Source: Anaerolineales bacterium (GTDB lineage Bacteria; Chloroflexota; Anaerolineae; Anaerolineales; Villigracilaceae). From it: 64,000 bases of DNA. The position numbers and the translations under genes are program-made. Shown here in pieces: positions 5,564 through 56,618 of the stretch (positions are counted from its first letter, which is position 1; every line of letters starts with the position of its first letter). The stretch covers positions 89,490 to 153,489 of the forward strand of contig JAXLVU010000005.1 of the NCBI GenBank assembly GCA_046328855.1. The letters are read 5' to 3'. The notes below the pieces were generated by a model. It was given only the letters and a program-made list of their open reading frames with translations. It made no database searches and had not been told where the DNA came from.

Positions 5564-5658
5564 ATCTGTTCGTATTTAATCCACCTGAAGCGAAGGCATT
5601 TTTATAGAATCAGCAACAGTTCTTTATATAAGGCTGTTAATTGAATCTTGGAGAAAAA

Positions 5659-6150: not shown

Positions 6151-6152
6151 CC

Positions 6153-6467: not shown

Positions 6468-6478
6468 GAAGCGACATC

Positions 6479-6515
6479 AAAAAAGAGGACATGCTCAGCA
6501 TGTCCTCTTTTGTTT
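6479..6515. terminator. Bidirectional intrinsic terminator
   Basis: AAAGAGGACATGCT-c-AGCATGTCCTCTTT with A/T tracts between convergent genes. Confidence 0.85.
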
Positions 6516-7835: not shown

Positions 7836-7850
7836 GATATTACAATGGGA

Positions 7851-8534: not shown

Positions 8535-8556
8535 GATTTTATTATCCCATAAACCC

Positions 8557-8573
8557 TGTGAAGAAATTGTGTG
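8557..8573 (-). promoter_or_regulatory. Putative autoregulatory direct-repeat box
   Basis: Reverse strand CACACA-atttc-TTCACA just upstream of a GATAAT -10 (8541-8546). Confidence 0.5.
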
Positions 8574-8589
8574 AAATTCTGGAGGATAA

Positions 8590-8620
8590 GAACCCCCGCC
8601 TCATTTCAAGGCGGGGGTTG
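8590..8620 (-). terminator. Intrinsic terminator
   Basis: AACCCCCGCC / GGCGGGGGTT stem downstream of the 8642-9085 gene. Confidence 0.7.
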
Positions 8621-8641
8621 GGGTGGCGTTAGAACTGTGGA

Positions 8642-9085
8642 TTACGCCTCATCCTTTTTCTCTTCGTCTTCAACTTGAACTTCTACCGGCTCAGGAGCTG
8701 GAGCTGGTGCAGGTTCAGTTGCTTGTGCGCTGTTGACGTTCACGAGGCGCCAACCGCTACGTTTGATCAAGCTAAATGCCAGCCAAACCAAACCGCCAAA
8801 CACGGCGAGTTGAAGTAACCCAAACAGCGGACCAAAAAATCCGAATCCGCCGCGCCCGCCGAAGCCATGTCCGCGATCGGAGCCGCGCATCATGCCGAAG
8901 CCTTCGTTTGTCATTCCACCGCTGAAATCATGTCCGTGATGAAATGCGAAAGCGGAAGTTCCTTCTGCGGTGAGAGTTGTGCTATACATGGCGCCAAAGC
9001 GGAACCCTGCAAAGGCAACACCTGCCAACACAACGAGAGTGAGAAGGATGGTGAGAGTCCACCAAAGCCATTTTTTTGTTTTCAT
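8642..9085 (-). CDS. Small 2-TM protein with His/Gly/Phe-rich loop and Pro/Glu tail
   Basis: GGAGG RBS before MKTKK; HHGH and GGRGGFGFFGP low-complexity loop. Confidence 0.75.
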   Translation of the reverse strand: MKTKKWLWWTLTILLTLVVLAGVAFAGFRFGAMYSTTLTAEGTSAFAFHHGHDFSGGMTNEGFGMMRGSDRGHGFGGRGGFGFFGPLFGLLQLAVFGGLVWLAFSLIKRSGWRLVNVNSAQATEPAPAPAPEPVEVQVEDEEKKDEA

Positions 9086-9201
9086 GTTTACCTCCATTTG
9101 TAAACTTGACTCTATTGTTTCACACCTGTATTACAAAGCAATGGAGGAAATATGTGAAAGTTGTGTGCCCACAAGAGTTACAAATAACGCGCCCGTGGAC
9201 T

Positions 9202-40401: not shown

Positions 40402-40442
40402 GGTTTGGATGATTATAACCAGTTATGTTAATGGGAAGTGAG

Positions 40443-42050
40443 TTAGCGGGAGATGAGGTTGGCGGGTTGTGCGGCATCTAACGCTTCGATGCTGACACCG
40501 TTGCGTGTGAGGAAGCCATCGTACTCATAGCCAGTGCCGCTGGATATCCAACCATCAAGATTCCATGGGTAGGGACCATCTGCGGCAATCCATTCGCCAT
40601 TGTATTTGCGGGTGATATGGACGTGAGTGGCGTTCGAAATGCCGCCCTCGCATGAGGGGTGCCCTACTTTTTCATTGCGGAAGAGGTATTCACCAGGGGT
40701 AACACGCCCAGCAGCTGCAACATGCATGTAAATAATGACCCAACCTGTTTGTTCGTATCCGTCATTATCAAGGTCTTGGTACACCGAACCTGTACCTGTG
40801 CGAGTGACGAGCCCATCTGCAATAGCAGTGACCCAACTGGTGCTGACGTTACAACCGCCACTGTTATCTGGCGGAGCGAAATCAAGCGCGCCCCAGGCAG
40901 AACCAGAGTCCCATGCGCCGTGTGGACCACCTGTGAAGTACCAGCTTTCGCCAGCAGCAAATGGTAGAGACATTTGTGGCTGTGTAAGCGTAGCAGGGAT
41001 TAATGGCTCAATGGCATAGTTGAACGGGTTTTCGAAAAGTACAACATATGTAACCACTACGCCGGTTTGGCTTGTGGCGTATTGCCAGGCATCGTAGCCA
41101 TAAAGTTGTGAGAAGAAATATTGTACGGCGGCTGTACCGGCATTTATGGTTGGGTCAATCGGAATGACTTGACCGTCGGTTAACACCCAGGTGGAGAGAC
41201 CATTGGCTTTCCATAGATAATAGCCGCGGTTGAGTGTATTTGCTGCCCAAACCACCTGACGATATAACCCTGCACGGGCTTCATCATAATACCCCATCGG
41301 GTAATCGATATTGGTTGGGGTTGGGTTGGTGACCCAGCCGCTTTGATATTCGAGCAAGGCAAGCAATATACGTGGGTTTACTGAATAGTTGTACGAAACG
41401 GCTTCAATGATATCGGCGCCATTTAGCAAAATCCCATTGACATCTTGAGTATAGTAGTTGAGATACCCGTTCTGGCTGGCAATGAAGTTTCTTAAATTAA
41501 ATTTGGCTGTTGCAGGTCCGTTGACCAGTTCGGAGTCTGGAATGATTTTTAAGGACTGTCCGCTTGAAACGCTGACTTGTGCCGCTGGAATATTTAAAGC
41601 CATGCCGACTTCAAGAGCGTTGGGATCGGTGATCCCATTGGCATCCATAAGAGTTTGCAGGCTAATGTTATAGCGTTGAGCAATGGCGCCTAAGGTATCG
41701 CCAGCTTGAACCACATACTGATCCGCATCTTGGCGTGGTGTCGGCAACACCCGAGCTGTATCTGGAGTAGGTGAACCCGAAATGATCTGGCTTTGCACCC
41801 CGATGAGAGAAGAAATATTCAAAGGCACGCGAGTGGGGGTTGGCGGGCGTGTGGAGGTTGCTGAGGGAATAACCGTTTCAGAAGACAGAGGCGTGGTCAC
41901 TGCCACGTTACTATTTGGCGGAAGAGTGGCTCCATTGGTAGAAACGAAAGGGTTATAGGTAGGGAAGGTTGCAGGTTCTTCTGTGGCAGGTGCGCAAGAG
42001 ACGATGAAACTGGCAAGTAAAAATATAGATACAGTTTTACGAAAAGACAT
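40443..42050 (-). CDS. LysM + M23 (LasA-like) metallopeptidase lipoprotein, paralog 1
   Basis: Lipobox IVSC, LysM (YVVQAGDTLGAIAQRY), H-x12-D, CEGGISNATHVH. Confidence 0.85.
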   Translation of the reverse strand: MSFRKTVSIFLLASFIVSCAPATEEPATFPTYNPFVSTNGATLPPNSNVAVTTPLSSETVIPSATSTRPPTPTRVPLNISSLIGVQSQIISGSPTPDTARVLPTPRQDADQYVVQAGDTLGAIAQRYNISLQTLMDANGITDPNALEVGMALNIPAAQVSVSSGQSLKIIPDSELVNGPATAKFNLRNFIASQNGYLNYYTQDVNGILLNGADIIEAVSYNYSVNPRILLALLEYQSGWVTNPTPTNIDYPMGYYDEARAGLYRQVVWAANTLNRGYYLWKANGLSTWVLTDGQVIPIDPTINAGTAAVQYFFSQLYGYDAWQYATSQTGVVVTYVVLFENPFNYAIEPLIPATLTQPQMSLPFAAGESWYFTGGPHGAWDSGSAWGALDFAPPDNSGGCNVSTSWVTAIADGLVTRTGTGSVYQDLDNDGYEQTGWVIIYMHVAAAGRVTPGEYLFRNEKVGHPSCEGGISNATHVHITRKYNGEWIAADGPYPWNLDGWISSGTGYEYDGFLTRNGVSIEALDAAQPANLISR

Positions 42051-42080
42051 AAATGTGATTTTACCAAATCGTGTAGGTAA

Positions 42081-42110
42081 AAAAAGAGGCGCAAACATTG
42101 CGCCTCTTTT
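42081..42110 (-). terminator. Intrinsic terminator ending the hydrogenase/CBS region
   Basis: AAAAGAGGCGCAA / TTGCGCCTCTTTT. Confidence 0.8.
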
Positions 42111-42127
42111 CAAGTTTGTTGAGAAAA

Positions 42128-42574
42128 CTACGATTGAAAACCAGAGCCCATGATGTAATTTTCAAGCCCGCGGATTTCACTTTCTTTGATGTCAATCGCT
42201 GCCAGCATCACATCGCGCATGGAAACCAAACCTACAAAATGCTCGCCTTCCACCACGGGTAAGTGGCGGATTTTGTATTGTTTCATCAGCCCCATGCATT
42301 GTTCAACAGTGGTGTCCATGGTTACATTGATCATCTTCGGTGTCATCACATCTTTGACCTTTGTATCCTTGGCAACCCGCCCCAACACTTCACCTTTATA
42401 GAGGTAATCACGTTCAGTATAAATACCAACGATTTTTCCGTTATTTGTTACTAACACAGCTCCAATGTGGGCTTCTGCCATTACCTTTAGAGCATCCAAC
42501 ACAGTTTGAGAGGCTTCAACAGAGTAGTTCGTTGCAAATTCTTTGGCTTCCAGAAGTTTTCGGACAGTGGTCAT
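42128..42574 (-). CDS. CBS-pair protein
   Basis: IGAVLV..IVGIYTERD; IRHLPV..GLVSMRD. Confidence 0.92.
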   Translation of the reverse strand: MTTVRKLLEAKEFATNYSVEASQTVLDALKVMAEAHIGAVLVTNNGKIVGIYTERDYLYKGEVLGRVAKDTKVKDVMTPKMINVTMDTTVEQCMGLMKQYKIRHLPVVEGEHFVGLVSMRDVMLAAIDIKESEIRGLENYIMGSGFQS

Positions 42575-42711
42575 GATTTTCGTCTCCTTATATAGTATCT
42601 TTTTTATCATAGGCAAAATAAAACGTCACACGGAAAAACTCCTCATCTCGCGTGACGTTTGTCATCTGATTTGATTTATACCCATCCGCAAGGACTGCTT
42701 TCGCTTCTTTC

Positions 42712-43218
42712 TTAATCTCCAGCCTGTTTCAGCGCTTCTCGGGTGTTCATCCACGCCCAAGCCAAATCCACAGCCTCGGGCACAAGAGCAGCCGTCGGCG
42801 CGGAAAGGAGGCGCGAGAACAGAAATTGATATCCGCGCACTGAGAGCAATGCTGCATCCGATTTACGATGATAGACCGTCTCGCAGATCGACATCAACGA
42901 CTGAGCGGTGAGGTGATGCGTGAAAGGTGATTTCTGAAAGTCACTTTCCACATCAATGATGCGTACTTCCTCTGGAATATTGCCCGTGTGCGCGTCCACA
43001 AAGCAGACGTATTCATATTGAGCAATATCTTCCGCCATTTCGGGCGTGAGTTGCAGATGAAAAGCGAAATCTACCTGTGAGTTTTCAGGGAAATCATCCT
43101 CGTATGAATCGGGTGCAGGCAGCCCCATTCGGACCGCCAACGCCCGCAGAATGTGCCAGGCAACACCATCATCTTCACGGTCGGGGTTTCCGTAGCCTAG
43201 TAATAAAATTTTTTTCAT
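42712..43218 (-). CDS. Hydrogenase maturation protease (HoxW-like)
   Basis: GYGNPDREDDGV, QLTPE, FVDA, THH; downstream of the large subunit. Confidence 0.88.
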   Translation of the reverse strand: MKKILLLGYGNPDREDDGVAWHILRALAVRMGLPAPDSYEDDFPENSQVDFAFHLQLTPEMAEDIAQYEYVCFVDAHTGNIPEEVRIIDVESDFQKSPFTHHLTAQSLMSICETVYHRKSDAALLSVRGYQFLFSRLLSAPTAALVPEAVDLAWAWMNTREALKQAGD

Positions 43219-43275: not shown

Positions 43276-43722
43276 TTACTCGCCATATCCCGTTCCAAGG
43301 ATGTAATGCTCAAGTTTATTGATTGTCCCTTTGTCTTCAGCCAGTAAAGCTTCTGCCAGCCTGCGAATGGAAACGATGCCTACGACTTTTTCTTTTTCCA
43401 TAATGGGCAGGTGTCGCACATGGTGCTGGTACATCAGGTCGGCGCATTCGGTTAACAAGGTATCCGGCTTGACCATGACGAGGTTTGTGCTCATCAATTC
43501 CCGGACGGGAGTTTCATTGGCGTGCTTGCCCTTGAGTTCGCCTCGCCGGGCATAATCTCGTTCGGTGAAGATGCCAACGATCTTCTCGTCTTCTGTAACC
43601 AACACGGCTCCCACATTGCCTTCATCCATTACTTTCAATGCATCCAGTATGGTGGCAGTAATGGGCACTGTAAAGACTTCTGTGCGGGCTTTGCTTTCGA
43701 TGATCTTTCGTACAGTCGTCAT
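43276..43722 (-). CDS. CBS-pair protein, paralog of 42128-42574
   Basis: MTTVRK start, VGAVLV..IVGIFTERDY, VRHLPI. Confidence 0.92.
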   Translation of the reverse strand: MTTVRKIIESKARTEVFTVPITATILDALKVMDEGNVGAVLVTEDEKIVGIFTERDYARRGELKGKHANETPVRELMSTNLVMVKPDTLLTECADLMYQHHVRHLPIMEKEKVVGIVSIRRLAEALLAEDKGTINKLEHYILGTGYGE

Positions 43723-43775: not shown

Positions 43776-45203
43776 TTAATCGCGTTTCAGGGTCTTAATC
43801 ATTGTACCGTCTGGAGCAATAAAGTCAACTTGGATGGGCATCTGCCCGACGGCATGCGTGGAACAGGATAGGCACGGGTCATAGGCGCGGATGGCGGCTT
43901 CGACGCGGTTGAGCATCCCTTCGTGGATGTCTGGTCCCTTGACGTAGGTCTTGGCGACGCTGTCCACGGCGTTGGTCATTGCCCAGTTGTTATGACCTGT
44001 CGAAACGATCAGGTTCACCTTGAGCAACTTGCCGTTTTCGTCTGCGGTGTAATCGTGGATGAGCGTTCCGCGCGGAGCTTCCAACACGCCCACACCATGA
44101 CCGGTGTAATTCTTGCGGGTGTTGAGGATGTCTGTGCTGGTGATGTCTGTGTCTTCGCACAGCACACGCGCACGTTCTGCCGCGAACAAGGCTTCGATCA
44201 GACGGGCATAGTGATAGTACAGCGTGTTCTCGACCATCTTGCCGCCATTGAGGTTCTTGAAGAGTTTGAGTTCTTCATTCGCCAGCGGAGTATCAATTTT
44301 CTCGGCGAGGTTCAGGCGTCCCAGCGGACCGACGCGATAGACGCCGCCCGGATAGCCCAATTTTTTGTAATACGGGAATTTGAGATACGACCACGGCTCG
44401 ACGTGTTCCGCGATGTGATCCAAGTAATTGGCAACCGGGAATTTTTCCAACGGCTTGCCTTCATTGCTGATGAGGCGGATGTCGCCGTCGTACAGTTCGA
44501 GCCCGTTTTCAGGGGTGGTCAGACCGAAATAGCCGGTTGGGAAGACGGCGAACTTGTTGATGTCTTCCATGTTCTTCGCCGCCCAGTCTTTCATGATCTG
44601 AATGCCCAAGAGCAGGGTTTCTACAGCAGCATCGACACCACTGAGAATGTAATCACGTTCTTTAATGGTCAGTGCTTTGTTTACGCCACCGGGCACAGCA
44701 AAGACCGGGTGTAGTTTACGTCCGCCCAAAGTCTTGATAATTTCCTGACCGAATTTGCGCAACTGCACAGCCTTCACGGTCAACTCAGGGTTTGCACCGA
44801 TCAAGCCAACCACACTGCGGATTTCTGGCGAAGCGTCGAAGCCGAGCAACAGGTCAGGACCCGCCAACTCGAAGAAGTGCATGCCGTGGCTTTGAATGAC
44901 CTGTCCCATGTGCATCAATTCGCGCAACATACTTGCCGGGCGCGGAGGGGTTTGCCCCGTCAACGCGTCGCTCGCTTTTGCCGCCGCGAGGTGATGACTT
45001 ACCGGGCAGATGCCACAAATGCGCGGCGTGATCTGCGGCATTTCAAAATACAAACGCCCTTCGCAGAATTTTTCAAACCCGCGAAACTCGTTGACGTGCA
45101 TATAAGCATGGTCAACAGTATGATCGTCCTTCATGTGGATCGTCACCTTGGCATGACCTTCAATGCGAGTGACCGGTTCGATGGTTATTTTCTGTGTAGT
45201 CAT
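43776..45203 (-). CDS. hoxH: [NiFe]-hydrogenase large subunit, group 3 (HoxH/HydL)
   Basis: TRIEGH, L1 [11 protein letters not shown]2 DPCLSCSTH, cleavable C-terminal tail. Confidence 0.96.
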
Positions 45204-45207
45204 AAGC

Positions 45208-45241
45208 TATTCCTCATTCATCATTCTGCATTCATCATTTC
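45208..45241. repeat. Heptamer tandem repeat in the hoxY-hoxH spacer
   Basis: TTCCTCA TTCATCA TTCTGCA TTCATCA. Confidence 0.75.
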
Positions 45242-45783
45242 TAATGCCAATGCAACAACTCATCTTTCAGTTCCGGCTTGCGCCCCTGTGCCAGTTCTGA
45301 AAGCACATAAAAGATCACATCTGCATCGGGCGGGCAGCCGGGCACGTTGTAATCGACGGGCACCACTTCATGCACAGCCCGCGCCTGAGTCATCGTTGCC
45401 AGTTCGGGGTCGTTGGGAATTTGGCTTCCCTCTTCGTTGCTTTCGGCTTCCACATAGGCACGGCGCAATGCTGCTTCCACACCGCAGAGGTTTCGCAGTG
45501 CTGGCACGCCGCCAAATACGGCACAGTCACCGAGCGCTACTAAAATTTTCGCGCGTTCGCGCATCTTGTGAGCCACTTCTTCGTTCGCGGAATTGTTCAC
45601 GCCGCCTTCGAGCACGCCCACGTCCACGCCGCTGGCATCGGGTTCTTTCAAGTCGGTAATGGGCGTAGAGCGCAAGTCTGCCAGTTCGGCGATCTTCAAA
45701 ATGCGCTCGTCCATATCGAGCAAAGACATGTGACAGCCTGCGCAGCCGCAGATCCAATCAGAAGCGATTTTTGGTTTATTCAT
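45241..45783 (-). CDS. hoxY: [NiFe]-hydrogenase small subunit (HoxY/HydS), single proximal cluster
   Basis: GCAGC, GDCAVFGGVP, PGCPP; 180 aa. Confidence 0.95.
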   Translation of the reverse strand: MNKPKIASDWICGCAGCHMSLLDMDERILKIAELADLRSTPITDLKEPDASGVDVGVLEGGVNNSANEEVAHKMRERAKILVALGDCAVFGGVPALRNLCGVEAALRRAYVEAESNEEGSQIPNDPELATMTQARAVHEVVPVDYNVPGCPPDADVIFYVLSELAQGRKPELKDELLHWH

Positions 45784-45790
45784 AAGTTCC

Positions 45791-47764
45791 TCAATTCAGC
45801 GACACGCTAGATTTGCGCTCACGGATGGACTTTGTCCAATCCGCATCCAAGGTCAATTTCATTCGTTTGGCAAGATCGGTCAACACATCCAAATTGTCGC
45901 GCACGTTTTCCGGCGCGTTGATCGCCTTTTCGGTTTTGTGAATGCGACCATCGAGATTAATGTAATGACCTTCCTGCTCCGCCCAAATGCTCACGGGCAA
46001 CACCACATCGGCTTGCTCGGTCAGTTTGGATTCATAACTTGCCTGCACCACCAAATAAGCCGCCTTGGATGTTTTCTCCACCAATTTCTTCGAGGCATAA
46101 TCATCGCCAACCGCAATGTAAGTCACTTTTTCTCCATTGGGATTGAATGGCTGCTCGAGTCCCATCAACGAGGCAGACTGGCTATTGGACTCACCTTTCA
46201 GCGAAAGGATGTTGCTGCGTTCGCCATCCACGGCTCCCACCTGGACTGCGAGCTGGTACAGCGCTTCGATCAGTTTTTCATCACGTTGAGCGGTGACGCC
46301 CTTACCAAAGACGATCATCGGCGAGATAGCATGCGCCAGCATCTGCGCGGCTTTGGTCAAGTCAGCTTCGGAGATGCCAGTTTCAGCGACAGCTTTTTTG
46401 ATGCGAGCATCGGCGTCCTTGATGTTCAGGGACTTGCGTTCGAGGTTTTCTTTTGCAATGACCGCTTGCAGCGCAAGGATCAGCGTCTGGTCGGAACCAG
46501 CTTTCGGCTTAAGCGCGACGCGGGCAATTTCATCCAGTGAAGTTTCATCCGGGTCGATGTTGATCAAGTTCACGCCAGCGTTCAAGTTGCGCTTGAATAA
46601 AAATCCCGCCACCATGTGGCTGCGGTTGACATTCGCGCCGACGCACAGAACCGTGTCCGCAGTTTTGAGCGCGTCGAGTTTGCCTTCAAAGTTTTCGTGC
46701 GTCTCAGCAAATTTTGCCACCGCCGCAGTCGGCACGCCTTCTTCGATGCTGGTGACAAGTTTGCTGTGAAGTTTTGTTTCAAACAGATCTTTGAACGCTG
46801 CCAATGTCTCTGCCGACAAACGAGTGGATGCTAACGCAGCGACACTTTCCTTCGCCATTTTTTCCTGCACAGCGCTCAAGGCTTCATCCCAGGAGACGGG
46901 TTCGAGTTTGCCATTCTTCTTCATCAGCGGAGAGGTGAGGCGCACGCGATTGTCATTGGTGGTGTGATAACGTCCATGCTCGCACATCGCACCGTGATTG
47001 ACGGCTCCATCCCAATCGCCTTCGATGCGGACGATGCGGTTATCGCGCACCATGATCTTGATCGAGCAACCAACCGAACAACCCACGCAGAAGGATTTGA
47101 TTTCCTGTAAATTTTTATCGTGCGACTGATACGCGCTGGTGCGGTCGATGAGTGCGCCGGTCGGGCAGACCTGCACGCAAGAACCGCATTTGATACAGGT
47201 GCTCTCACCGAGTGGAATATCGGTATCGGCGACGATCATGCTTTTCGCGCCGCGCTCCGCAACGGAGAGCGTGAAGTTGCCCGCCATCTCTGCACAAGCC
47301 CGCACACAGCGGCGGCAAAGGATACAGCGATTGTTGTCGAGCACAAAATACGGATGTGATGTATCGACCGGAAAATCATTCCAGCCCGGCTGAATGGGCC
47401 AGTGAGTCATCTCTTCGCGGTAAGCGGAGTTTTGCAATTCGCAATCTCCACCGCTGACCTGGCAGAACGGGCAGAAGTGGTTGCGTTCGCTGAACAGCAT
47501 CGAAAGCACGAACTGACGCGATTTCTTAAGCGCATCGGTTTCAGTTTCCACTACCATGCCATTGTTGACCGGCAAGGTACAGGATGCCATTGGCACGCGA
47601 ATGCCTTGCACTTCCACAATGCACAAGCGGCAGCCGCCGTACGGGGTTAGTTCCTTGTGGTCGCATAGACGTGGAATGTGAATGCCCGCCATCTCTGCCG
47701 CACGCAGAACCGTTGTTCCTTCGGGGACGTCAATTTGTTGTTTGTTGATCGTTATTTGAACCAT
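45791..47764 (-). CDS. Long HoxU/NuoG-like Fe-S subunit (HydA of NiFe-HydABCSL type)
   Basis: [2Fe-2S] (LC..GGCRLC..C), HFCPFC..C, two CxxCxxCxxxC, CVGCSVGC..C, then a molybdopterin-oxidoreductase-like fold; no H-cluster motifs. Confidence 0.88.
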   Translation of the reverse strand: MVQITINKQQIDVPEGTTVLRAAEMAGIHIPRLCDHKELTPYGGCRLCIVEVQGIRVPMASCTLPVNNGMVVETETDALKKSRQFVLSMLFSERNHFCPFCQVSGGDCELQNSAYREEMTHWPIQPGWNDFPVDTSHPYFVLDNNRCILCRRCVRACAEMAGNFTLSVAERGAKSMIVADTDIPLGESTCIKCGSCVQVCPTGALIDRTSAYQSHDKNLQEIKSFCVGCSVGCSIKIMVRDNRIVRIEGDWDGAVNHGAMCEHGRYHTTNDNRVRLTSPLMKKNGKLEPVSWDEALSAVQEKMAKESVAALASTRLSAETLAAFKDLFETKLHSKLVTSIEEGVPTAAVAKFAETHENFEGKLDALKTADTVLCVGANVNRSHMVAGFLFKRNLNAGVNLINIDPDETSLDEIARVALKPKAGSDQTLILALQAVIAKENLERKSLNIKDADARIKKAVAETGISEADLTKAAQMLAHAISPMIVFGKGVTAQRDEKLIEALYQLAVQVGAVDGERSNILSLKGESNSQSASLMGLEQPFNPNGEKVTYIAVGDDYASKKLVEKTSKAAYLVVQASYESKLTEQADVVLPVSIWAEQEGHYINLDGRIHKTEKAINAPENVRDNLDVLTDLAKRMKLTLDADWTKSIRERKSSVSLN

Positions 47765-47789
47765 GTAATCCTCTTTAAAATTAGGATGT

Positions 47790-49433
47790 TTATCCAATAT
47801 GTTCGGGTACTAAATTCATCTCACACACGCCCGTCGGGCAACTGCCTAAGCGGATGTGTGCTTCTACTTCGGTACGAAAATGCTTGAGCATGTCGCGGAT
47901 CGGAACGGTGGCGGTCTGCCCAAGCCCACAATTTGAGGCGCGTTCCATTTCCGCGATCAATGTTTGCAGTGTATCCAAGTCATCCAGTTTGCCCTGTCCC
48001 TTCGAGATGCGATCCACGATCTCGTACGAGCGTTGGGTGCCCACACGGCAGGGTGTGCATTTGCCGCAGGACTCAAAGCGGAAGAATTGCAACAGCACTT
48101 TGACCAGGTCCACGATGCAGGTGTTCTGGTCGCAGATGAGAAGCGCGCCAGAGCCAAGCGAAACGCCTGCCTTGCGGAAAGATTTAAAATCCATCGGAAC
48201 ATCACGCAGGGAAGCCGGGATGATCGAGCCGCTGCTACCGCCGGTTTGGGCGAGTTTTAGCACGCTGCCGGGTTTCATCCCTTTGGCGTAGATGTTGATG
48301 ACCTCGCGCAAAGTGATGCCCATTGGCACTTCGATCACGCCGCTAAAGTTGACGTTGCCCATGATGGTGTAAACCTTCGTGCCCGGGCTGGAGGGCGTGC
48401 CGAACGAGCGATACCACTCCGCGCCGTTGCGCAAAATGGCAGGGATGTTCGCCAGCGTCTCCACGTTGTTGACCGTGGTGGGTTTATTCCATAAGCCACG
48501 CGTCACCGGGTAGGGTGGGCGGGGACGGGGTTCTCCGCGCTTGCCTTCGATGGACTCGATCAGCGCAGTCTCTTCGCCGCAGACGTACGCGCCTGCGCCA
48601 GCATGCACATGAATGTGAAAGTTAAAGTTCGTGTTGAAAATATTTTTGCCGAGGAAACCAAATTCCTCCGCCTGTTCAATCGCATGTTGCAGACGGCGAT
48701 AGGCATGACCATATTCGCCGCGAATGTAAATGTAGCCTTCGTCCGCGCCGACGGCGTAACCCGTAATTGCCATCGCTTCGAGGATTGCATGCGGGTCACC
48801 TTCGAGCACGATGCGGTCTTTGAACGTGCCCGGTTCGCTTTCATCGGCATTGCAGATGACATATTTCTCTTCACCTTTTGCCGCGCGCACAAATTTCCAT
48901 TTGCGCCCCGTCAAAAAGCCTGCGCCGCCGCGTCCTTGCAAGCCAGATTTTTCAACGACATCGATCACTTGTTCCGGCGTCATGTCGCTCAGCACTTTGC
49001 CAAGCGCTTCATAACCGTTGTGAGCGATCGCATCTTCAATGTTCTCGGGGTCAATGCGCCCGGCACGCTCGAGGACGATCCGCTGCTCCGATGGGTTGTA
49101 TCCTTTATGAGCGCGGAGAGAACCGATCTGTCCCGTCAACTGTTTGGGCGGGGCAAGCAAATCCTCAGCAACGCGTCCCTTGTAAAGATGTTCTTCCACC
49201 AAATAACGCGCATCGCCCGGCTTGACCGGTCCATACACTGCGGCTTCGGGGTACACCACAACAATTGGAAGGATATTTGTCCGCTCGATATCTTGGATCT
49301 CGGCGATATCGACTTCATCTTGCAATTGATACGCTTCCAACGCCTCTTTCAGATTTTCGAGTAGTTCGCTCGCTCCGAGCCTCATACTCTCTGGATCCGT
49401 GGAGACCAACATCATGGCACGTTTTGTTTTCAT
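47790..49433 (-). CDS. NuoF/HoxF flavoprotein, copy 2 (non-bifurcating-type signature)
   Basis: GRGGAGF, NADESEPGTFKD, ESCGKCTPCRVG; no C-terminal 2x[4Fe-4S]; Cys-less N-terminal thioredoxin-like domain. Confidence 0.92.
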   Translation of the reverse strand: MKTKRAMMLVSTDPESMRLGASELLENLKEALEAYQLQDEVDIAEIQDIERTNILPIVVVYPEAAVYGPVKPGDARYLVEEHLYKGRVAEDLLAPPKQLTGQIGSLRAHKGYNPSEQRIVLERAGRIDPENIEDAIAHNGYEALGKVLSDMTPEQVIDVVEKSGLQGRGGAGFLTGRKWKFVRAAKGEEKYVICNADESEPGTFKDRIVLEGDPHAILEAMAITGYAVGADEGYIYIRGEYGHAYRRLQHAIEQAEEFGFLGKNIFNTNFNFHIHVHAGAGAYVCGEETALIESIEGKRGEPRPRPPYPVTRGLWNKPTTVNNVETLANIPAILRNGAEWYRSFGTPSSPGTKVYTIMGNVNFSGVIEVPMGITLREVINIYAKGMKPGSVLKLAQTGGSSGSIIPASLRDVPMDFKSFRKAGVSLGSGALLICDQNTCIVDLVKVLLQFFRFESCGKCTPCRVGTQRSYEIVDRISKGQGKLDDLDTLQTLIAEMERASNCGLGQTATVPIRDMLKHFRTEVEAHIRLGSCPTGVCEMNLVPEHIG

Positions 49434-49442
49434 GGCTGGCTC

Positions 49443-49934
49443 CTATTCGTAACGTTCCAAAATTTCGGGTAGTTGTTCGACAGTGACGTTTCCGTACATG
49501 TCATCGTCAATCAACAATACAGGACCCACACTGCATAAACCGATACACGATGTGGTGACAAGCGTCCACTTTTTATCGGGCGTGGTTTCGCCATTTTCGA
49601 GATCTAGCGTTTCGCGCAAGGCATCCCAGATGGCTTTGCCGCCCACGACATGACACGGCGCATTCTCACAGAACTTGATGACGTGTCGTCCGCGCGGCTG
49701 GGTGGAGAGCATGTCGTAGAAACTCGCCAGCCCGTACAACTGTCCCTGTGAGACGAAACTGCCATCCTGATTGATCTGCACTTTCACTTCGCGAATGGCT
49801 TCGGCAGGGATGTACCCCAGCACATGATTGATCTCGCTGAGGATTGGGATAAACGCATCACGCCCACGTCCATGCTTTTCAATGGCTTCCTGAACGACTT
49901 CCTTGATTTCACGTTCTACCGCTGGAGCGTACAT
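49443..49934 (-). CDS. NuoE/HoxE [2Fe-2S] subunit, copy 2
   Basis: CENAPC...CIGLC. Confidence 0.92.
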   Translation of the reverse strand: MYAPAVEREIKEVVQEAIEKHGRGRDAFIPILSEINHVLGYIPAEAIREVKVQINQDGSFVSQGQLYGLASFYDMLSTQPRGRHVIKFCENAPCHVVGGKAIWDALRETLDLENGETTPDKKWTLVTTSCIGLCSVGPVLLIDDDMYGNVTVEQLPEILERYE

Positions 49935-49948
49935 TCAACCTCCGATAA

Positions 49949-51733
49949 TTACGAAAGAACCGAGACCGCGTTGAAATTACAAACTTGCATACAAATGCCG
50001 CAACGAATGCATTTGTTGATATCGATAGCATGTGCCTGTCTGCGTTCACCGCTGATGGCTTCCACTGGGCAGTTCCTCGCGCAGACCGTACAACCGGTAC
50101 AAGTTGGTGCCTGAATTTCAAAGTGGATCAAATTACGGCAGACCTTTGCCGGGCATTTCTTTTCATACACATGCGCCTCATACTCATGGCGGAAGTGTTT
50201 GAGCGTGCTCAAGACTGGGTTGGGAGCACCTTGTCCCAAACCGCATAAACTATTTTTAGCAACTTCATGGCACAGGTCTTCGAGTTTTTCAATGTCGCCA
50301 TGTTCGCCTTTGCCGTCGCAAATTTTCTGCAGCAGTTCCAGAATACGACGTGTTCCCACGCGGCAAGGCGTACACTTCCCGCAGGATTCCGCTTGCGTAA
50401 AGTCCATGAAGAAGCGGGCAATGTCCACCATGCAGGATGTTTCATCCATCACCACCAGACCGCCCGAGCCCATCATCGAACCGGCTTGGGTCAGTGCTTC
50501 GTAATCGAGCGGCAGGTCCAGATGTTCAGCGGTGAGACATCCGCCCATCGGTCCGCCCGTTTGTACGGCTTTATATTGCCTGCCGTCTTTGATTCCGCCC
50601 GCTACATCAAAGATAATTTCGCGCAAGGTGATTCCCATCGGCACTTCGATCAGACCCGGCTTGGCAACATTGCCGCCGACCGCAAAGGTCTTCGTGCCTT
50701 TGGATCGTTCGGTGCCCATGCTGGCGTACCAGTCCGCGCCTTTGAGGATGATTTGCGGCACATTGGCATACGTTTCTACATTATTGTTATTCGATGGCTT
50801 GCCCCAAACGCCCTTTACCGAAGGGAATGGGGGACGGGGACGCGGCTCTCCGCGCTGCCCCATGATCGATGCCATCAGAGCAGTTTCTTCGCCGCAAACG
50901 AATGCTCCCGCGCCAACGCGCACTTCCAAGTCGAAGTTGAAATCGGTACCGAGGATGTCGTTTCCCAAAAAGCCAAACTCACGCGCTTGGGCAATTGCCA
51001 CATTGAGTGTTTCCACCGCCAGCGGATATTCCGCACGGCAGTAGATATAGCCATAATTTGCGCCAACCGCATACGCGCCGATGATCATGCCTTCAATGAC
51101 CGAATGCGGATCACCTTCGAGTACACGGCGATTCATGAAAGCGCCCGGGTCACCTTCATCAGCATTGCAGACCATATACTTGATGTCACCCGGAACCTGA
51201 CGAGTGAGTCCCCATTTTCGCCCAGCAGGGAAGCCCGCGCCGCCACGTCCGCGCAGACCGGATTTGGTCACTTCTTCAATGACCTGTTCTGGCTTCATCT
51301 CGCCGATGACTTTTCCAAGTGCTTGGTAGCCATCCACAGCAAGATAATCTTCGATGTTCATCGGGTCGATCTCGCCGCAGTTGCGCAGCACCACACGCAC
51401 TTCCTTCGGGCGCAGCGGACCTAACTCTTCATCAACGATCGCTTTATGAACTTCGCGGAACTTCTCAACAATGCGCCCTTTTAGAAAATGTTCTTCCACC
51501 AAAAACGGCACATCGTCCGCGGTCATGCCGACGTAATGCACGCCTTCGGGGTAGACCATCATTTCGGGTCCATCTGAGCAACTTCCGATGCGTGAGGTTT
51601 CGAGGACTTGAATTTCGTCTAAAAGTCCCTGCGCAACAAGTTCATCTTGCAAAGCATCTACAACATCATGAGCGCCTTTCGCCAGGCACTCCGGGTCAGC
51701 ACATACTAAAATATGAGATCGATAAAAAGGCAT
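49949..51733 (-). CDS. HydB/NuoF flavoprotein, copy 1 (bifurcating-type signature)
   Basis: NADEGDPGAFM, ESCGKCTPCRVG, C-terminal CTGCTVCARNCP and CIRCGICMQVC. Confidence 0.93.
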   Translation of the reverse strand: MPFYRSHILVCADPECLAKGAHDVVDALQDELVAQGLLDEIQVLETSRIGSCSDGPEMMVYPEGVHYVGMTADDVPFLVEEHFLKGRIVEKFREVHKAIVDEELGPLRPKEVRVVLRNCGEIDPMNIEDYLAVDGYQALGKVIGEMKPEQVIEEVTKSGLRGRGGAGFPAGRKWGLTRQVPGDIKYMVCNADEGDPGAFMNRRVLEGDPHSVIEGMIIGAYAVGANYGYIYCRAEYPLAVETLNVAIAQAREFGFLGNDILGTDFNFDLEVRVGAGAFVCGEETALMASIMGQRGEPRPRPPFPSVKGVWGKPSNNNNVETYANVPQIILKGADWYASMGTERSKGTKTFAVGGNVAKPGLIEVPMGITLREIIFDVAGGIKDGRQYKAVQTGGPMGGCLTAEHLDLPLDYEALTQAGSMMGSGGLVVMDETSCMVDIARFFMDFTQAESCGKCTPCRVGTRRILELLQKICDGKGEHGDIEKLEDLCHEVAKNSLCGLGQGAPNPVLSTLKHFRHEYEAHVYEKKCPAKVCRNLIHFEIQAPTCTGCTVCARNCPVEAISGERRQAHAIDINKCIRCGICMQVCNFNAVSVLS

Positions 51734-51749
51734 TAGTTACTCCAGAGAA

Positions 51750-51779
51750 AGAGTCAAAAGGGTAAGTCCCTTTGACTCT
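51750..51779. other. Intra-operon hairpin between the ferredoxin and hydB genes
   Basis: AGAGTCAAAAGGG / CCCTTTGACTCT. Confidence 0.6.
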
Positions 51780-51783
51780 GAAA

Positions 51784-52152
51784 TTAGATGGGCAAAACGT
51801 AATCTTTCAAAGGCGTTCCATGTTGCACATGTTGCTTCATGATCTGACCGGCAACTTCCGCGTTGACTTTTCCATAGGTTACCTTGGCTGAATCACCCAC
51901 GACGACCTGCACAATGGGCTCTTGCTCGCACATGCCCATGCACCCGGTTTGGGTTACGGTCACACCGCTCAGTTTTTCGGCTTCGATGAAATTCAAAATG
52001 CTTTTCATCGTGTCGCGTGCACCGGCGGCGATTCCACACGTGCCCATCGCTACGATCACCTGAATCTGACCGGGAGCGGCTTTCATTTGTTTCTTGGCAA
52101 GCGCTTCTTCGCGAACGCGCTTCAGTTCTTCCAACGATTTAATGGCTGGCAT
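51784..52152 (-). CDS. Thioredoxin-like (2Fe-2S) ferredoxin, HndB/HydD-like
   Basis: MGTCGIAAGAR, TGCMGMCEQEP. Confidence 0.9.
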   Translation of the reverse strand: MPAIKSLEELKRVREEALAKKQMKAAPGQIQVIVAMGTCGIAAGARDTMKSILNFIEAEKLSGVTVTQTGCMGMCEQEPIVQVVVGDSAKVTYGKVNAEVAGQIMKQHVQHGTPLKDYVLPI

Positions 52153-52163
52153 GGTTACTCCTC

Positions 52164-52733
52164 TCAATATTCAATCTGCGGCGTGAGCGCTTGAATGCCT
52201 TCTTCGATCATGCCACGTAGAATTTTCAACACATCCGGCTCGGTCAGTGGGGTATCACCGAGCACCGATTTGATTTCTATATCATCCAGCTCGAACGATT
52301 TCATCGAGCCATCTTTTGCTGTAATCTCATACTTGAATGCCCAATGAATATGCGGGTATGAAATTAACAAGGTCAGGAAAGTGGTTCCGACGTCACCAAG
52401 TGGCATGCGGTCAATATGACTGTGACGAAACGACGCCTCGATACGCGTGCCTTTGCCGGGTTCTGTTTCCAGGCTTAAGCCACCCTCGGTCTGTTCAGCC
52501 GCCAACTTCAAGAGCGGAATTCCCAGCCCGACTTTTCGCGTGGTGCGCGTGGTGTAGAACGGATCAATTACATGTTTGGCAGTTTCTGCATCCATGCCTC
52601 TGCCGTCATCTTTTACTGAGACTTTGAGCAGATCGTTTTGCAAGTCTTCCACTACATCAATCTGAATACTTCGGCTTTCCGCCGCAACACTGTTTTCAGC
52701 AATATCCAAAAGATGCAGAGCGATCTCGCGCAT
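52164..52733 (-). CDS. Stand-alone HATPase_c protein typical of hyd/hnd operons
   Basis: MREIALHLLDIAENS, DDGRGM, DPFYTTRTTRKVGLG, HIDRMPLG. Confidence 0.9.
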   Translation of the reverse strand: MREIALHLLDIAENSVAAESRSIQIDVVEDLQNDLLKVSVKDDGRGMDAETAKHVIDPFYTTRTTRKVGLGIPLLKLAAEQTEGGLSLETEPGKGTRIEASFRHSHIDRMPLGDVGTTFLTLLISYPHIHWAFKYEITAKDGSMKSFELDDIEIKSVLGDTPLTEPDVLKILRGMIEEGIQALTPQIEY

Positions 52734-52735
52734 GG

Positions 52736-53245
52736 TTAACCTTGAACCTTCTTCAATACCTGTGGAAACTTGTTCGGGCGCAATTTGCCTTGCACTTCTT
52801 CGTTGACCACCACCACAGGTGCCTGACTGCATGCGCCCACACAGCGGCATTCTTCAAGCGTGATCTGCCCGTCGGGAGTCGTGTCACCGAGTTCAATGTT
52901 CAACATCTGTTTGGCTTTTTCCACCAGTTGCGGAGTGCCTGCTACATAGCAAGCTGTTCCCAAACAGAATTTGATGGTGTGCTTGCCGCGCGGCTTAGTC
53001 TTGAAAAAAGAATAGAACGTCACCACGCCGTGGACTTGCCCGAGCGGGACGTTCAAATTCTGTGCGATGTACACCTGCATGCAAGGGGAGACGTGCCCGA
53101 TCTTCGATTGCACTTCGTTCAGCACGAGCATGACCGCACCCGGGCGGTCTTTGTTCTCGGCAATGGCTTTGTCGATCAAGGGCTTTAAGTCTTCAGATTT
53201 AAGTGGGTCGTTCGCGGGGATGTCTTTCAATGCTCTTGTTGTCAT
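52736..53245 (-). CDS. NuoE/HydC [2Fe-2S] subunit, copy 1
   Basis: VVTFYSFF, CLGTAC...CVGAC. Confidence 0.93.
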   Translation of the reverse strand: MTTRALKDIPANDPLKSEDLKPLIDKAIAENKDRPGAVMLVLNEVQSKIGHVSPCMQVYIAQNLNVPLGQVHGVVTFYSFFKTKPRGKHTIKFCLGTACYVAGTPQLVEKAKQMLNIELGDTTPDGQITLEECRCVGACSQAPVVVVNEEVQGKLRPNKFPQVLKKVQG

Positions 53246-53364: not shown

Positions 53365-54099
53365 TTACATTCGTAGTTTTCTGCTATTTTCCGCCCTTAA
53401 TGCCATTTGAATCTCAGAAAGGGTAGGTGCTTCGAGCTCAAAAAATGTGCTGCCTAAAAATTCAGAAAGTCGATGAACGTCGCCTGATTGGATAACCGGC
53501 AGCCGTTTCGATGAGGGGAATTTTTGGTACAGCATCTCTCGGGTGATGTGGCGGGAAATTTCTAAAGCAGGGAAGTGCCACCAGTCTGCAAGGAAGCCAA
53601 GTGTAGGGAATAAGCCAAAGGAGGGACGGTCTACATGAGCTGGGATAACAATGCCATTCAACGTATTGACGAGTTCAATGATTTCTTCGATAGAGAATTT
53701 TGTAGCTGTGAGCAAGAGCCGCGGCTCTGTGCGGATGTATTCGCCTTGTTCATCGACTATAAATTGTTCACCAAGGTGATCGGCAGGATTCAATTCATCG
53801 GGGAGGGCAAGGTCAACTTGGTGTTGCCAGGCTTCGAGGTCCGCAAGAGAGGCGAAGAGACAAAGCAGATGGACATCTTCATGCGATTGGACTTCCATAC
53901 CGGGCAATACGGTCAGCCCAGTTCCATCTGCCGCCTTTTGGACAGCGCCTACGTTCGCGCTGGCGTTATGGTCGGTGATGGCGATGATATCGATGTGATG
54001 CTCAAGCGCCTCTTGCACGATGAGAGGCGGAATCATCTCCACTTCTGCGCAGGGGGAGAGGACGGTGTGAACGTGCAGGTCTGCACAAAAAGATTTCAT
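53365..54099 (-). CDS. PHP-domain phosphoesterase
   Basis: DLHVHT.LSPC, ITDHN, PAHVDR, SGDVH. Confidence 0.92.
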   Translation of the reverse strand: MKSFCADLHVHTVLSPCAEVEMIPPLIVQEALEHHIDIIAITDHNASANVGAVQKAADGTGLTVLPGMEVQSHEDVHLLCLFASLADLEAWQHQVDLALPDELNPADHLGEQFIVDEQGEYIRTEPRLLLTATKFSIEEIIELVNTLNGIVIPAHVDRPSFGLFPTLGFLADWWHFPALEISRHITREMLYQKFPSSKRLPVIQSGDVHRLSEFLGSTFFELEAPTLSEIQMALRAENSRKLRM

Positions 54100-54101: not shown

Positions 54102-54440
54102 TTAACGCAAGTTCAAATCCCAGAGGGCGCCGCAGATCTCATAGCTTGCTTTTTCTGTCGATAGCAAAATGACGCCTTGTTCATTGGCTTTGGCAATGGT
54201 GGCTTCATCGGGTTGGGCATTTTCGGTGATGATGACGGCTGAGACTTCAAGCATGGCTGCGACAGCGACGATGTTCATATGAGCCTGTAATGTGACCCAG
54301 ATGTTGCTGTTCTTTGCGCCTGCCATAACACATGAAAGCAAGTCAGATGTGTAGCCGCCTTTGGGAGTAATGGATGAAAAATCACGCGGCTCGGTAAGGA
54401 TATTGAGTTGAAGATTTTCAATGACGGTTTGAAGATTCAT
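54102..54440 (-). CDS. DRTGG-domain protein
   Basis: SDLLSCVM, WVTLQAHMNIVAVA. Confidence 0.88.
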   Translation of the reverse strand: MNLQTVIENLQLNILTEPRDFSSITPKGGYTSDLLSCVMAGAKNSNIWVTLQAHMNIVAVAAMLEVSAVIITENAQPDEATIAKANEQGVILLSTEKASYEICGALWDLNLR

Positions 54441-54442: not shown

Positions 54443-55444
54443 TTATCCCTTCTTGCTATTAAGGCTTTCGGTTGGAACATTGATACGCATCGTGAGTTTT
54501 GTGCCTTTGCCAGCGGTTGATTCCAACTCCATTGAGTCTACGCAGCGTTTTATGTTGACCAACCCCATGCCTGCACCAAAGCCCATTTCACGCACTTTAT
54601 CTGTGGCGGTTGAATAGCCAGCTTGTTGTGCCTTTTGCACATCAGGAATGCCGGGGCCATCATCTGTGGTGATCAGGCTGATGCGATGTGGTTCCACCTC
54701 AAGTTTGAGAACGCCGCCATTGGTGGTGTGAATAATTAGATTCATCTCTGCTTCATAGGCAGCGATGCCGCAGCGCCGTGCCAGTTGTGCATCGGCACCG
54801 AGGCGAAGCAGGGCGCGCTTGATGTTGCTGGATGCATTGCCGCCATGCATAAAATCCCCAACTTTGATGTTGTATCGTAAGACAAGTGTAGTGCGGTCTG
54901 AAACAATATCGTCGAATAAGTGGCTGGCACGATATCGCCGGACTTCCTCTTCTTTGTAATCACGTTCTACAGCCAACAGAATGCCGCGTGTGATATCACC
55001 CTTGGTGATGATGCCCTCTAACTTTTGGTGTTCACCTACCACGGGTAAGCGCCCCAGCCTTTTTTCGCTGAATGTTTTTATTGCTTCAACAACACTGTCT
55101 GTAGCTTTGACGGTGACAAGGGTTGTGCTCATGTAGGCTTTAACTGGGAGCGATAAACCATTTGTTTGCAAAGCCCGTACAATATCTTCAAGACTAATAA
55201 CACCGATCAAGTTGCCGTCGCTGACGACGGGCAAACCAGAGATGCGGTTGACCCTCAAAAGCTCTAATGCGCTGGAAAGCGGCACATCCGATGTGGTTGT
55301 GATGACATTCTTGATCATCACTTCACGTACTTTCAAGTCATATGAAAGTTCCTCGATGCGATTGATCTCATGTGCATCGCGGTCTGTGAGCGGACGATGC
55401 CGCCCAAACTTTTCCTGTTCAGTCGGTTGCCTAGTCGGATCCAT
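54443..55444 (-). CDS. CBS pair fused to an RsbT-like HATPase (Ser/Thr kinase/anti-sigma)
   Basis: ISGLPVV and LGRLPVV CBS repeats; YEAEMNLIIH, DDGPGI, GYSTA..GFGAGMGL. Confidence 0.9.
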   Translation of the reverse strand: MDPTRQPTEQEKFGRHRPLTDRDAHEINRIEELSYDLKVREVMIKNVITTTSDVPLSSALELLRVNRISGLPVVSDGNLIGVISLEDIVRALQTNGLSLPVKAYMSTTLVTVKATDSVVEAIKTFSEKRLGRLPVVGEHQKLEGIITKGDITRGILLAVERDYKEEEVRRYRASHLFDDIVSDRTTLVLRYNIKVGDFMHGGNASSNIKRALLRLGADAQLARRCGIAAYEAEMNLIIHTTNGGVLKLEVEPHRISLITTDDGPGIPDVQKAQQAGYSTATDKVREMGFGAGMGLVNIKRCVDSMELESTAGKGTKLTMRINVPTESLNSKKG

Positions 55445-55796
55445 TGCCTTCGTAGCTTTTTAATCCTAAGTCATGAAGTTTTCCGCATAGTTCAAACATA
55501 CCCATTGGGCTTGTGATCAACGGAATGTTTTCTTGATTTGCGATATCGATTGTCTCTTGCTGAGGTCTCTTGCCGCGGATAAAAACGATCGCACGGAAAT
55601 CTGCCATTTGCGCGGTTCGGACTACCTGTGGGTTGGTCAGCCCGGTCAACAGCACTGCTCGCGGACGGCTGTATGCAAGCACATCGCTCATTAGGTCTGC
55701 ACAGCAACCACCATGGATATTTACATCAGTATTCAATTCTGGGGTTAATAATTCACCTTGTGCTATCACAATAATGTCTTTCAAGTTCATATTCAT
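55431..55796 (-). CDS. DRTGG-domain protein
   Basis: ADLMSDVL, LLTGLTNPQVVRTA, FIRGK. Confidence 0.88.
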   Translation of the reverse strand: MNMNLKDIIVIAQGELLTPELNTDVNIHGGCCADLMSDVLAYSRPRAVLLTGLTNPQVVRTAQMADFRAIVFIRGKRPQQETIDIANQENIPLITSPMGMFELCGKLHDLGLKSYEGNGSD

Positions 55797-56334: not shown

Positions 56335-56618
56335 TACTCCTCGTTAGCATCTTGGGGACTTAAATAACTGTATTGGCTCCATAAAGCAGCCAAATGTTCA
56401 ATCTCTTTCTTCATGCGAGCAGCAGTTTTGTCTGAGTTACGGTGAACTTTGCAGAAGATATCTGGGTCTGCGAGAAAAGCGCCAAGGCAAGCCTCGGTGC
56501 AAAGCAAAATTTTCTTGCCTTTGTATTCAGCAAAAGGAAAATATTGCGGGTCGGTATCGCGGAAGATACGTCCGCACAGGGTGGCGAAGGCTTTGGGTTT
56601 CGCCCGTTCTTCACTCAT
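56334..56618 (-). CDS. YHS/TRASH-like small protein
   Basis: LCG...EYKGKKILLCTEACLGAFLADP. Confidence 0.7.
   Translation of the reverse strand: MSEERAKPKAFATLCGRIFRDTDPQYFPFAEYKGKKILLCTEACLGAFLADPDIFCKVHRNSDKTAARMKKEIEHLAALWSQYSYLSPQDANEE

Follow-up and report, generated by a model that had tools for sequence, protein, structure and literature searches.

An Anaerolineae operon with two NuoE/NuoF pairs, one of the bifurcating and one of the non-bifurcating type, and a NiFe-HydABCSL-type hydrogenase core

Gene content of the operon and its catalytic core

The subject of this study is a hydrogenase operon of an Anaerolineales bacterium, found in a stretch of 64,000 nucleotides (contig JAXLVU010000005.1 of assembly GCA_046328855.1, positions 89,490 to 153,489; "the window" hereafter means this whole stretch, with positions counted from its first letter). 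Analysis of open reading frames together with Pfam and NCBIfam assignments revealed, on the minus strand from 53245 to 43776, a single tight operon with the order NuoE-1, HisK-like ATPase, 2Fe-2S ferredoxin, NuoF-1, NuoE-2, NuoF-2, HydA, HydS and HydL, the genes from NuoF-1 through HydS being separated by gaps of only 7–25 nt. This operon holds one NiFe pair and one NuoG-like gene only, as against two NuoE/NuoF pairs, in agreement with an earlier note, made from the letters alone, that had described a single NiFe pair and one long NuoG-like subunit preceded by two NuoE+NuoF pairs. Judged by its sequence, the locus is a soluble NiFe hydrogenase of the Acetomicrobium mobile HydABCSL kind (Bfu type 3) with an extra NuoE/NuoF pair placed between hydB and hydA. 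The arrangement is not a matter of chance, as about 50 further Anaerolineae species carry it with the same motifs. The genes of the operon are as follows.

52736..53245, minus strand: NuoE-1, being HydC of the bifurcating-type module, 169 residues (Pfam 2Fe-2S_thioredx, E 1.8e-46; four cluster Cys)
52164..52733, minus strand: HisK-like ATPase, 189 residues from the ATG at 52733, as in orthologues (Pfam HATPase_c)
51784..52167, minus strand: thioredoxin-like 2Fe-2S ferredoxin, HydD-like (Pfam and NCBIfam 2Fe-2S ferredoxin), which together with the HisK-like ATPase separates NuoE-1 from NuoF-1
49949..51733, minus strand: NuoF-1, being HydB, the bifurcating-type flavoprotein, 594 residues (best PDB match 7T2R_B, 848 bits)
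49443..49934, minus strand: NuoE-2, 2Fe-2S partner of NuoF-2, 163 residues (Pfam E 7e-40)
47790..49433, minus strand: NuoF-2, the non-bifurcating-type flavoprotein, 547 residues (GTFK, Tyr and GGSSG; TFK clade)
45791..47764, minus strand: HydA, a long NuoG-like Fe-S subunit, 657 residues from ATG (best PDB match 7T2R_A, 279 bits)
45241..45783, minus strand: HydS, small NiFe subunit with a single 4Fe-4S site, 180 residues (Pfam Oxidored_q6)
43776..45203, minus strand: HydL, NiFe large subunit, 475 residues (best PDB match 7T2R_D, 574 bits)

The functional block exceeds 43776-53245, with accessory genes flanking both sides of the operon; these, like the HisK-like ATPase and ferredoxin genes within it, are absent from the earlier note.

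55431..55796, minus strand: DRTGG-domain accessory gene, the first of a conserved upstream regulator set (Pfam DRTGG; kept upstream of the cassette in relatives)
54443..55444, minus strand: protein with a CBS pair and HATPase_c, a putative regulator (Pfam CBS and HATPase_c; kept in relatives)
54102..54440, minus strand: second DRTGG-domain protein (Pfam DRTGG; kept in relatives)
53365..54099, minus strand: PHP-domain protein (Pfam PHP; kept in relatives)
43276..43722, minus strand: CBS-pair protein (Pfam CBS)
42712..43218, minus strand: hydrogenase maturation endopeptidase, HydP-like (NCBIfam TIGR00072, 52.5 bits, above the cut-off)
42128..42616, minus strand: second CBS-pair protein, with which the conserved block ends (Pfam CBS; kept in close relatives)

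Assignment to the HydABCSL kind was made because all genes but those for NuoE-2 and NuoF-2 have their best solved relative in 7T2R. From their motifs the catalytic parts look intact. HydL is a group-3 large subunit with both Ni-binding Cys motifs (one being DPCLSCSTH) and a 25-residue C-terminal tail that looks like the substrate of the maturation protease, and it is nearer to the A. mobile protein than to the next match, solved HoxH, at 400 bits. HydS has one CxxC...C...C set, with no room for medial or distal clusters. HydA carries ligand sets for five clusters, including a His-ligated one, all invariant in 29 orthologues except for three nearly invariant Cys of the A1 (first 2Fe-2S) set. 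Its start was placed at ATG 47764 by the orthologue consensus MVxITING, the alternative TTG at 47797 giving 668 residues. Its C-terminal domain is of the molybdopterin fold, the HoxU model matches residues 13-234 only, and Pfam found no Fe_hyd_lg_C (H-cluster) domain in it. The label hoxY/hoxH used in the earlier note must accordingly be replaced: given the closest solved relatives in 7T2R and the length of HydA, the core is an A. mobile-type HydASL and not a classical HoxUYH.

The A. mobile NiFe-HydABCSL (PDB 7T2R/7T30; Feng 2022, PMC8880783; Schut 2022, PMC9304861) is encoded in the order hydC, hisK, hydD, hydB, hydA, hydS, hydL and protease, with a single B/C pair and with a HydA of 692 residues; its hisK product is not part of the holoenzyme (PMC9304861). 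The present locus shares this gene order, finds there the best solved relatives of HydB, HydA and HydL, and likewise has a long HydA with five cluster sites and no H-cluster, a HydS with a single cluster, and a HydB with GAFM, B2 ligands and a C-terminal 2x[4Fe-4S] domain. It differs by the inserted second NuoE/NuoF pair, by a HydB N-terminal site with three of four Cys, and by its host, one of the Anaerolineae (Chloroflexota) as opposed to Synergistota. What is known is thus NiFe-HydABCSL with one pair, and what appears to be new is a second, conserved pair of the non-bifurcating type in the operon; our literature search, within the library available to it, found no published hydrogenase operon, NiFe or FeFe, with both a bifurcating-type and a non-bifurcating-type pair.

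Two types of NuoF in one operon

Three sequence criteria have been reported to separate bifurcating from non-bifurcating beta subunits, the non-bifurcating marks being Thr/Ser and Lys/Ser/Ala replacing Ala/Glu and Met, Tyr for Phe near flavin mononucleotide (FMN), and no GGPSG (Losey 2020, PMC7311640), and extra Fe-S clusters B2-B5 have been described as marks of Bfu enzymes (Schut 2022, PMC9304861). The signature of NuoF-1 consists of ADEGDPGAFM, Phe (in GAGAF) and GGPMG, the last loop being one residue off GGPSG. Its C-terminus forms a 2x[4Fe-4S] domain (Pfam Fer4 at 538-590, with eight Cys in two CxxCxxCxxxC motifs), and in the alignment to 7T2R_B it keeps each of the five ligands that form the B2 site in A. 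mobile (Cys438, Cys476, His525, Cys531 and Cys536). NuoF-2 instead has ADESEPGTFK, Tyr (in GAGAY) and GGSSG, with PGTFK, GAGAY and GGSSG found in every orthologue, ends ten residues after CPTGVC, and has neither a C-terminal ferredoxin domain nor any Cys in its N-terminal domain. Cys89, 94, 130 and 134 of its partner NuoE-2 are invariant in 29 orthologues. The signatures of both NuoF proteins are constant across about 50 species.

The phylogeny of the NuoF core, built with representatives from a library of 1.8 billion proteins, placed NuoF-1 in the clade with bifurcating signatures (SH-aLRT 99) and NuoF-2 in a clade of its own (SH-aLRT 100) nested in the TFK-type clade (97-98). Five of the seven TFK-clade neighbours whose genomic context we inspected adjoin FdhA genes, one lies in a FeFe two-pair operon and one has no partner on its contig. 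The identity between NuoF-1 and NuoF-2 is 49%, and that between NuoE-1 and NuoE-2 is 29%. Because of this divergence, the distinct clades and the contexts of the neighbours, NuoF-2 is by sequence an old, separate lineage of the non-bifurcating type. A recent duplication of NuoF-1 was ruled out as its origin by the same identities and by the separate, supported clades, and its being a group 3d HoxF was ruled out by the score of HoxF 5XF9_A (300 bits versus 574 bits for bifurcating-type HydB chains) and by tree neighbours that mostly stand beside FdhA.

These results bore out what the earlier note had proposed for the two copies in the main, with some corrections. Copy 1, with GAFM and a C-terminal 2x[4Fe-4S] domain, is of the bifurcating type by the published criteria (PMC7311640, PMC9304861) and by its clade; copy 2, with GTFK and no such domain, is of the non-bifurcating type by the published sequence criteria, and the phylogeny separates the two in well-supported clades. 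The proposed "NuoF/HoxF" typing of copy 2 held with regard to the non-bifurcating type and failed with regard to HoxF, NuoF-2 being nearer to formate dehydrogenase beta subunits. Its short C-terminus was likewise seen as described, but is not diagnostic by itself, since HoxEFUYH (group 3d) of Synechocystis PCC 6803 has been reported to bifurcate with a HoxF that has no C-terminal ferredoxin domain, although having AFM, Phe and GGPSG (preprint 10.64898/2026.06.25.734504).

The motif CGEE in NuoF goes with a preference for NADH. Both copies have kept it, and the use of NAD(P)H suggested in the earlier note therefore found no sign of NADPH in its favour.

Compared with known systems, NuoF-2 resembles the beta subunits of non-bifurcating, NADH-dependent hydrogenases (Losey 2020, PMC7311640) in all three sequence criteria, and it has neither the C-terminal ferredoxin domain nor N-terminal Cys; by analogy its expected chemistry would be the same, namely H2 formation from NADH that is independent of ferredoxin and possible only when H2 is very low. 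Those subunits are however partnered with FeFe HydA and not with NiFe HydASL, while NuoF-2 keeps a Cys/His/Cys/Cys site and shares its operon with a bifurcating-type pair. To the diaphorase of NAD-dependent formate dehydrogenase (FdsB/FdsG type, Rhodobacter capsulatus, PDB 6TGA) it is linked by its TFK clade, which includes NuoE-NuoF fusions beside FdhA, and by its predicted docking on a NuoG-like N-terminal domain; it differs in that NuoE-2 and NuoF-2 are separate genes and in that the NuoG-like partner here lacks the pterin-binding cap domain and delivers electrons to a NiFe site. With the Synechocystis HoxEFUYH there is likeness in the order NuoE, NuoF, NuoG-like, small and large subunit, which equals NuoE-2, NuoF-2, HydA, HydS and HydL, and in the short C-terminus of the flavoprotein, whereas HoxU has about 240 residues compared with the 657 of HydA, and the AFM, Phe and GGPSG of HoxF stand against TFK, Tyr and GGSSG.

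Variant forms of NuoF-1 were seen in relatives. At loci L042:1853-4978 and L104:5918-9115 the protein has 1041-1065 residues, with Fer4_20 and Pyr_redox_2 (GltD/NfnB-like) replacing the C-terminal 2x[4Fe-4S] domain, and a similar GltD-like fusion makes up the first NuoF (1015 residues) of an FeFe two-pair cassette at L087:2488-5535. The Pyr_redox_2 fusions hint that these variants use NADP(H) as a third substrate.

Conservation of the two pairs in Anaerolineae

A search with HydL gave loci from 80 Anaerolineae species at 72-97% identity, including Ornatilinea apprima P3M-1 (L078), Brevefilum fermentans and Candidatus Villigracilis, with the closest matches (97%) coming from Anaerolineales metagenome-assembled genomes. 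For a census of the two-pair form, 59 of the genomes were informative. The form was present in about 55 of these, so that the synteny survey proposed in the earlier note showed a recurring operon. The full string from NuoE-1 to HydL stands next to HydASL in about 52 of the 59, with the order of the pairs reversed in two of them. In three genomes HydASL was alone at its locus, and the cassette from the regulators to NuoF-2 was intact elsewhere in two of these (once beside hypB and hypF) and split over contig ends in the third. Three further genomes, one of them a 4.9-Mb single contig, had pair 1 only, with no NuoF-2 orthologue anywhere, and one had neither pair adjoining HydASL and no NuoF-2 orthologue. 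None of the 59 informative genomes had pair 2 without pair 1.

The genomes having only pair 1 nest among two-pair genomes in the NuoF-1 tree, and we therefore take their state to be a loss of pair 2. With pair 2 lost in three genomes that kept pair 1, head 2, as we shall call NuoE-2/NuoF-2, would be an add-on to a working single-head enzyme. Using comparisons with four relatives, dN/dS (nonsynonymous over synonymous substitution rates) was 0.03-0.11 for NuoE-2 and NuoF-2, the same range as for HydA, HydS and HydL, and all the subunits are under strong purifying selection.

Contigs from an activated-sludge metatranscriptome covered 29 of 30 operon bins, with several pieces identical to the window. 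Such contigs show presence in an RNA library, and they give no ranking of genes, no proof of a single transcript and no exclusion of DNA carry-over, the low-cover bins at 49964-51217 carrying no weight.

A similar cassette was also seen outside this group, in a JGI metagenome contig unrelated to these loci (L087, genes 1133-9494), with the order HATPase, small ORF, NuoE, NuoF-GltD fusion, NuoE, TFK-type NuoF and then FeFe HydA, so that FeFe hydrogenases, too, can come with the two-pair design.

Two possible modes of one hydrogenase core

We next modelled NuoF-2 and NuoE-2 in complex with residues 12-240 of HydA, each given as a 29-row alignment. The model reached an ipSAE interface score of 0.85, compared with 0.00 for the best control, with the runs agreeing in at least 96% of contacts and with a pLDDT of at least 80 for the partner; in our benchmark 58 of 80 solved complexes and two of 110 mismatched pairs attained the mark applied to ipSAE. 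In the model, the 4Fe-4S loop of NuoF-2 (452-468) contacts HydA 52-60, around the first 2Fe-2S cluster, which is the site used by HydB in 7T2R and the canonical NuoF-NuoG interface. With regard to the complex model of the NuoG-like subunit proposed in the earlier note, pair 2 is hence predicted to dock, and at the canonical site, and NuoF-2 looks in the model like a binder of HydA at the place of HydB.

The genome, about 80% complete, was also searched for other partners. The earlier note had considered that copy 1 might partner a different catalytic subunit, either FeFe HydA or formate dehydrogenase. No FeFe HydA was found in the genome; three NuoF homologues were found, the third standing beside the NuoG of complex I, and the only two NuoG-type proteins are this complex I NuoG and HydA, as is also the case in four of the five relatives that were checked. 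A different catalytic partner elsewhere in the genome was therefore not supported, with neither FeFe HydA nor any further NuoG-type protein seen at that completeness.

Going beyond gene content, motifs, phylogeny, conservation, selection and the lack of any other NuoG-type partner, we infer a mutually exclusive docking, an activity for each form and a physiological use. The reading that we somewhat favour has one HydA-HydS-HydL core that is offered two alternative NADH-flavoprotein heads from the same operon, and this core probably makes H2 in either of two energetic modes. Head 1 (NuoE-1/NuoF-1, that is HydC/HydB) would be bifurcating, making H2 from NADH and reduced ferredoxin in a reversible manner as in the A. 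mobile enzyme. Head 2, without a ferredoxin-binding domain, would be specific for NADH and pass its electrons directly to H2, which, if the enzymes of Syntrophus and Syntrophomonas are a guide, should be feasible only at very low H2. Both heads would use the same N-terminal site of HydA; each HydA would therefore carry one or the other, and the cell would hold a mix of two enzyme forms. Summed, the two activities would remove the fixed NADH-to-ferredoxin ratio to which an enzyme that only confurcates is bound, and NADH alone could be vented as H2 whenever partners keep H2 very low, as would suit fermenters living beside H2 consumers. Modules may in addition be swapped and switched with H2 pressure, as the earlier note had envisaged.

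Several observations weigh against this picture of two alternative heads. Of the four Cys of the thioredoxin-like 2Fe-2S site in the N-terminal domain of NuoF-1, only three are present, with Arg at one ligand position, and many NuoF-1 orthologues have a single Cys in that domain, while the full set of five BfuB clusters has been described as conserved throughout the Bfu enzymes (Schut 2022, PMC9304861); the site was here equated with cluster B5 of that study by assumption. In NuoF-2, Cys439, His526, Cys532 and Cys537 match four of the five B2 ligands of A. mobile HydB and are invariant in 29 orthologues, the fifth position being Ser in NuoF-2 and Cys or Thr in bifurcating enzymes. Owing to this conserved B2-like site, the chemistry of head 2 is not certain to be that of an NADH-only enzyme. 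The two pairs stay together as a cassette when HydASL is unlinked from them, which also fits both pairs working as a unit. Promoter- and terminator-like sites inside the operon were no commoner than in shuffled sequence, a result uninformative on regulation, and with both pairs in one tight operon without internal signals above chance nothing visible sets or switches the ratio of the heads. The passing score of the complex model may come from the likeness to solved NuoF-NuoG complexes, and a second docking site is compatible with it. Finally, the completeness of the genome limits the negative result on partners elsewhere.

The best surviving alternative has both heads in one particle working as a unit, either as a mixed dimer of pentamers or through a second docking site on HydA or HydB, thereby gating coupled versus uncoupled electron flow, and we consider it unlikely, though not greatly so. 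It would fit the intact block from NuoE-1 to NuoF-2 with its regulators where HydASL lies elsewhere, the single operon that holds both pairs with gaps of 9-25 nt, the similar cassette in front of FeFe HydA at L087, and the dimer-of-pentamers structure of the A. mobile enzyme, by which mixed dimers are geometrically possible. The cofactors of the A. mobile pentamers are however more than 40 Å apart and the pentamers electrically independent, the one site modelled for NuoF-2/NuoE-2 coincides with the canonical site taken by HydB/HydC in 7T2R, an ungated NADH-only head on the same chain would short-circuit bifurcation, and three lineages have lost head 2 and kept the rest. In an extended form, which we find improbable as well, a single regulated HydASL particle or mixed dimer carries both head types and alternates between H2 turnover coupled to ferredoxin and turnover with NADH alone, the HisK-like, CBS, DRTGG and PHP proteins might set the gear, and the two-pair cassette would be a cross-phylum design for NiFe and FeFe hydrogenases.

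Another possibility, distinctly improbable in our judgement, is that NuoE-2/NuoF-2 is not a simple NADH-only head and either bifurcates by a reduced route, as reported for the cyanobacterial HoxEFUYH, or differs in nucleotide preference or redox tuning. The invariant B2-like ligands, the 2Fe-2S ligands kept by NuoE-2 and the bifurcation reported for the Synechocystis enzyme without a C-terminal ferredoxin domain would all agree with this. Yet NuoF-2 has none of the three features, AFM, Phe and GGPSG, that are found in the Synechocystis HoxF; as it has neither Cys in the N-terminal domain nor a ferredoxin domain, there is no visible exit route to ferredoxin; and CGEE in both copies gives no hint of NADPH.

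It is highly improbable that NuoE-2/NuoF-2 works for another enzyme, such as a formate dehydrogenase of the NuoG type, and only happens to lie among the hydrogenase genes: although the nearest relatives of NuoF-2 outside Anaerolineae adjoin FdhA genes and several relatives (L009, L024, L029, L034, L054, L064 and L083) have an FdhA-type gene without its own NuoE/NuoF directly downstream of the operon, complex I NuoG and HydA are the only NuoG-type proteins in the genome and in four of the five relatives checked, no FdhA adjoins most of the two-pair loci, hydA directly follows the NuoF-2 gene in most loci, and the model supports docking of NuoF-2 on HydA.

If one core with two alternative heads were true, its two energetic couplings would help to explain how Anaerolineae get rid of NADH and reduced ferredoxin at ratios that vary; activated sludge and digesters hold these fermenting bacteria in abundance, and strains in culture grow better when H2-consuming methanogens are present (PMC9942424). 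The operon furthermore offers a natural comparison of the same HydASL core with a bifurcating-type versus a non-bifurcating-type flavoprotein, which bears on what features make a NuoF-type FMN site bifurcate. The two-head question is testable, as a cultured carrier exists in Ornatilinea apprima P3M-1.

With regard to the surroundings of the operon, split FdhA-type genes (a NuoG-like N-terminus and a molybdopterin part) were seen directly downstream of it in the seven relatives named above, there downstream of the protease gene, as well as in L036, L045, L047 and L055. These genes have no NuoE/NuoF of their own in some loci and a third, bifurcating-type pair in others, and the window has no such gene. 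On the same contig but outside the window, at G000:C31:221400-229000 (L117:5426-13019), lies a second NiFe hydrogenase cluster, membrane-bound and group-4-like, with a fused NuoC/NuoD-like large subunit, a NuoB-like small subunit, a NuoH-like subunit, two antiporter-like subunits and a HycI protease, likely constituting a ferredoxin-linked H2 route in the same organism. The G+C content of the hydrogenase genes (window 44001-52000) is 0.52-0.54, compared with 0.44-0.49 in the flanks. Directly downstream of the block, at 37281-42113 on the minus strand, are three tandem paralogues of 496-556 residues with LysM and a weak match to M23 peptidase, and upstream of the regulators, at 56615-58333 on the minus strand, lies a gene of the alpha-amylase family (572 residues, Pfam E 9e-127), consistent with a sugar-fermenting lifestyle.

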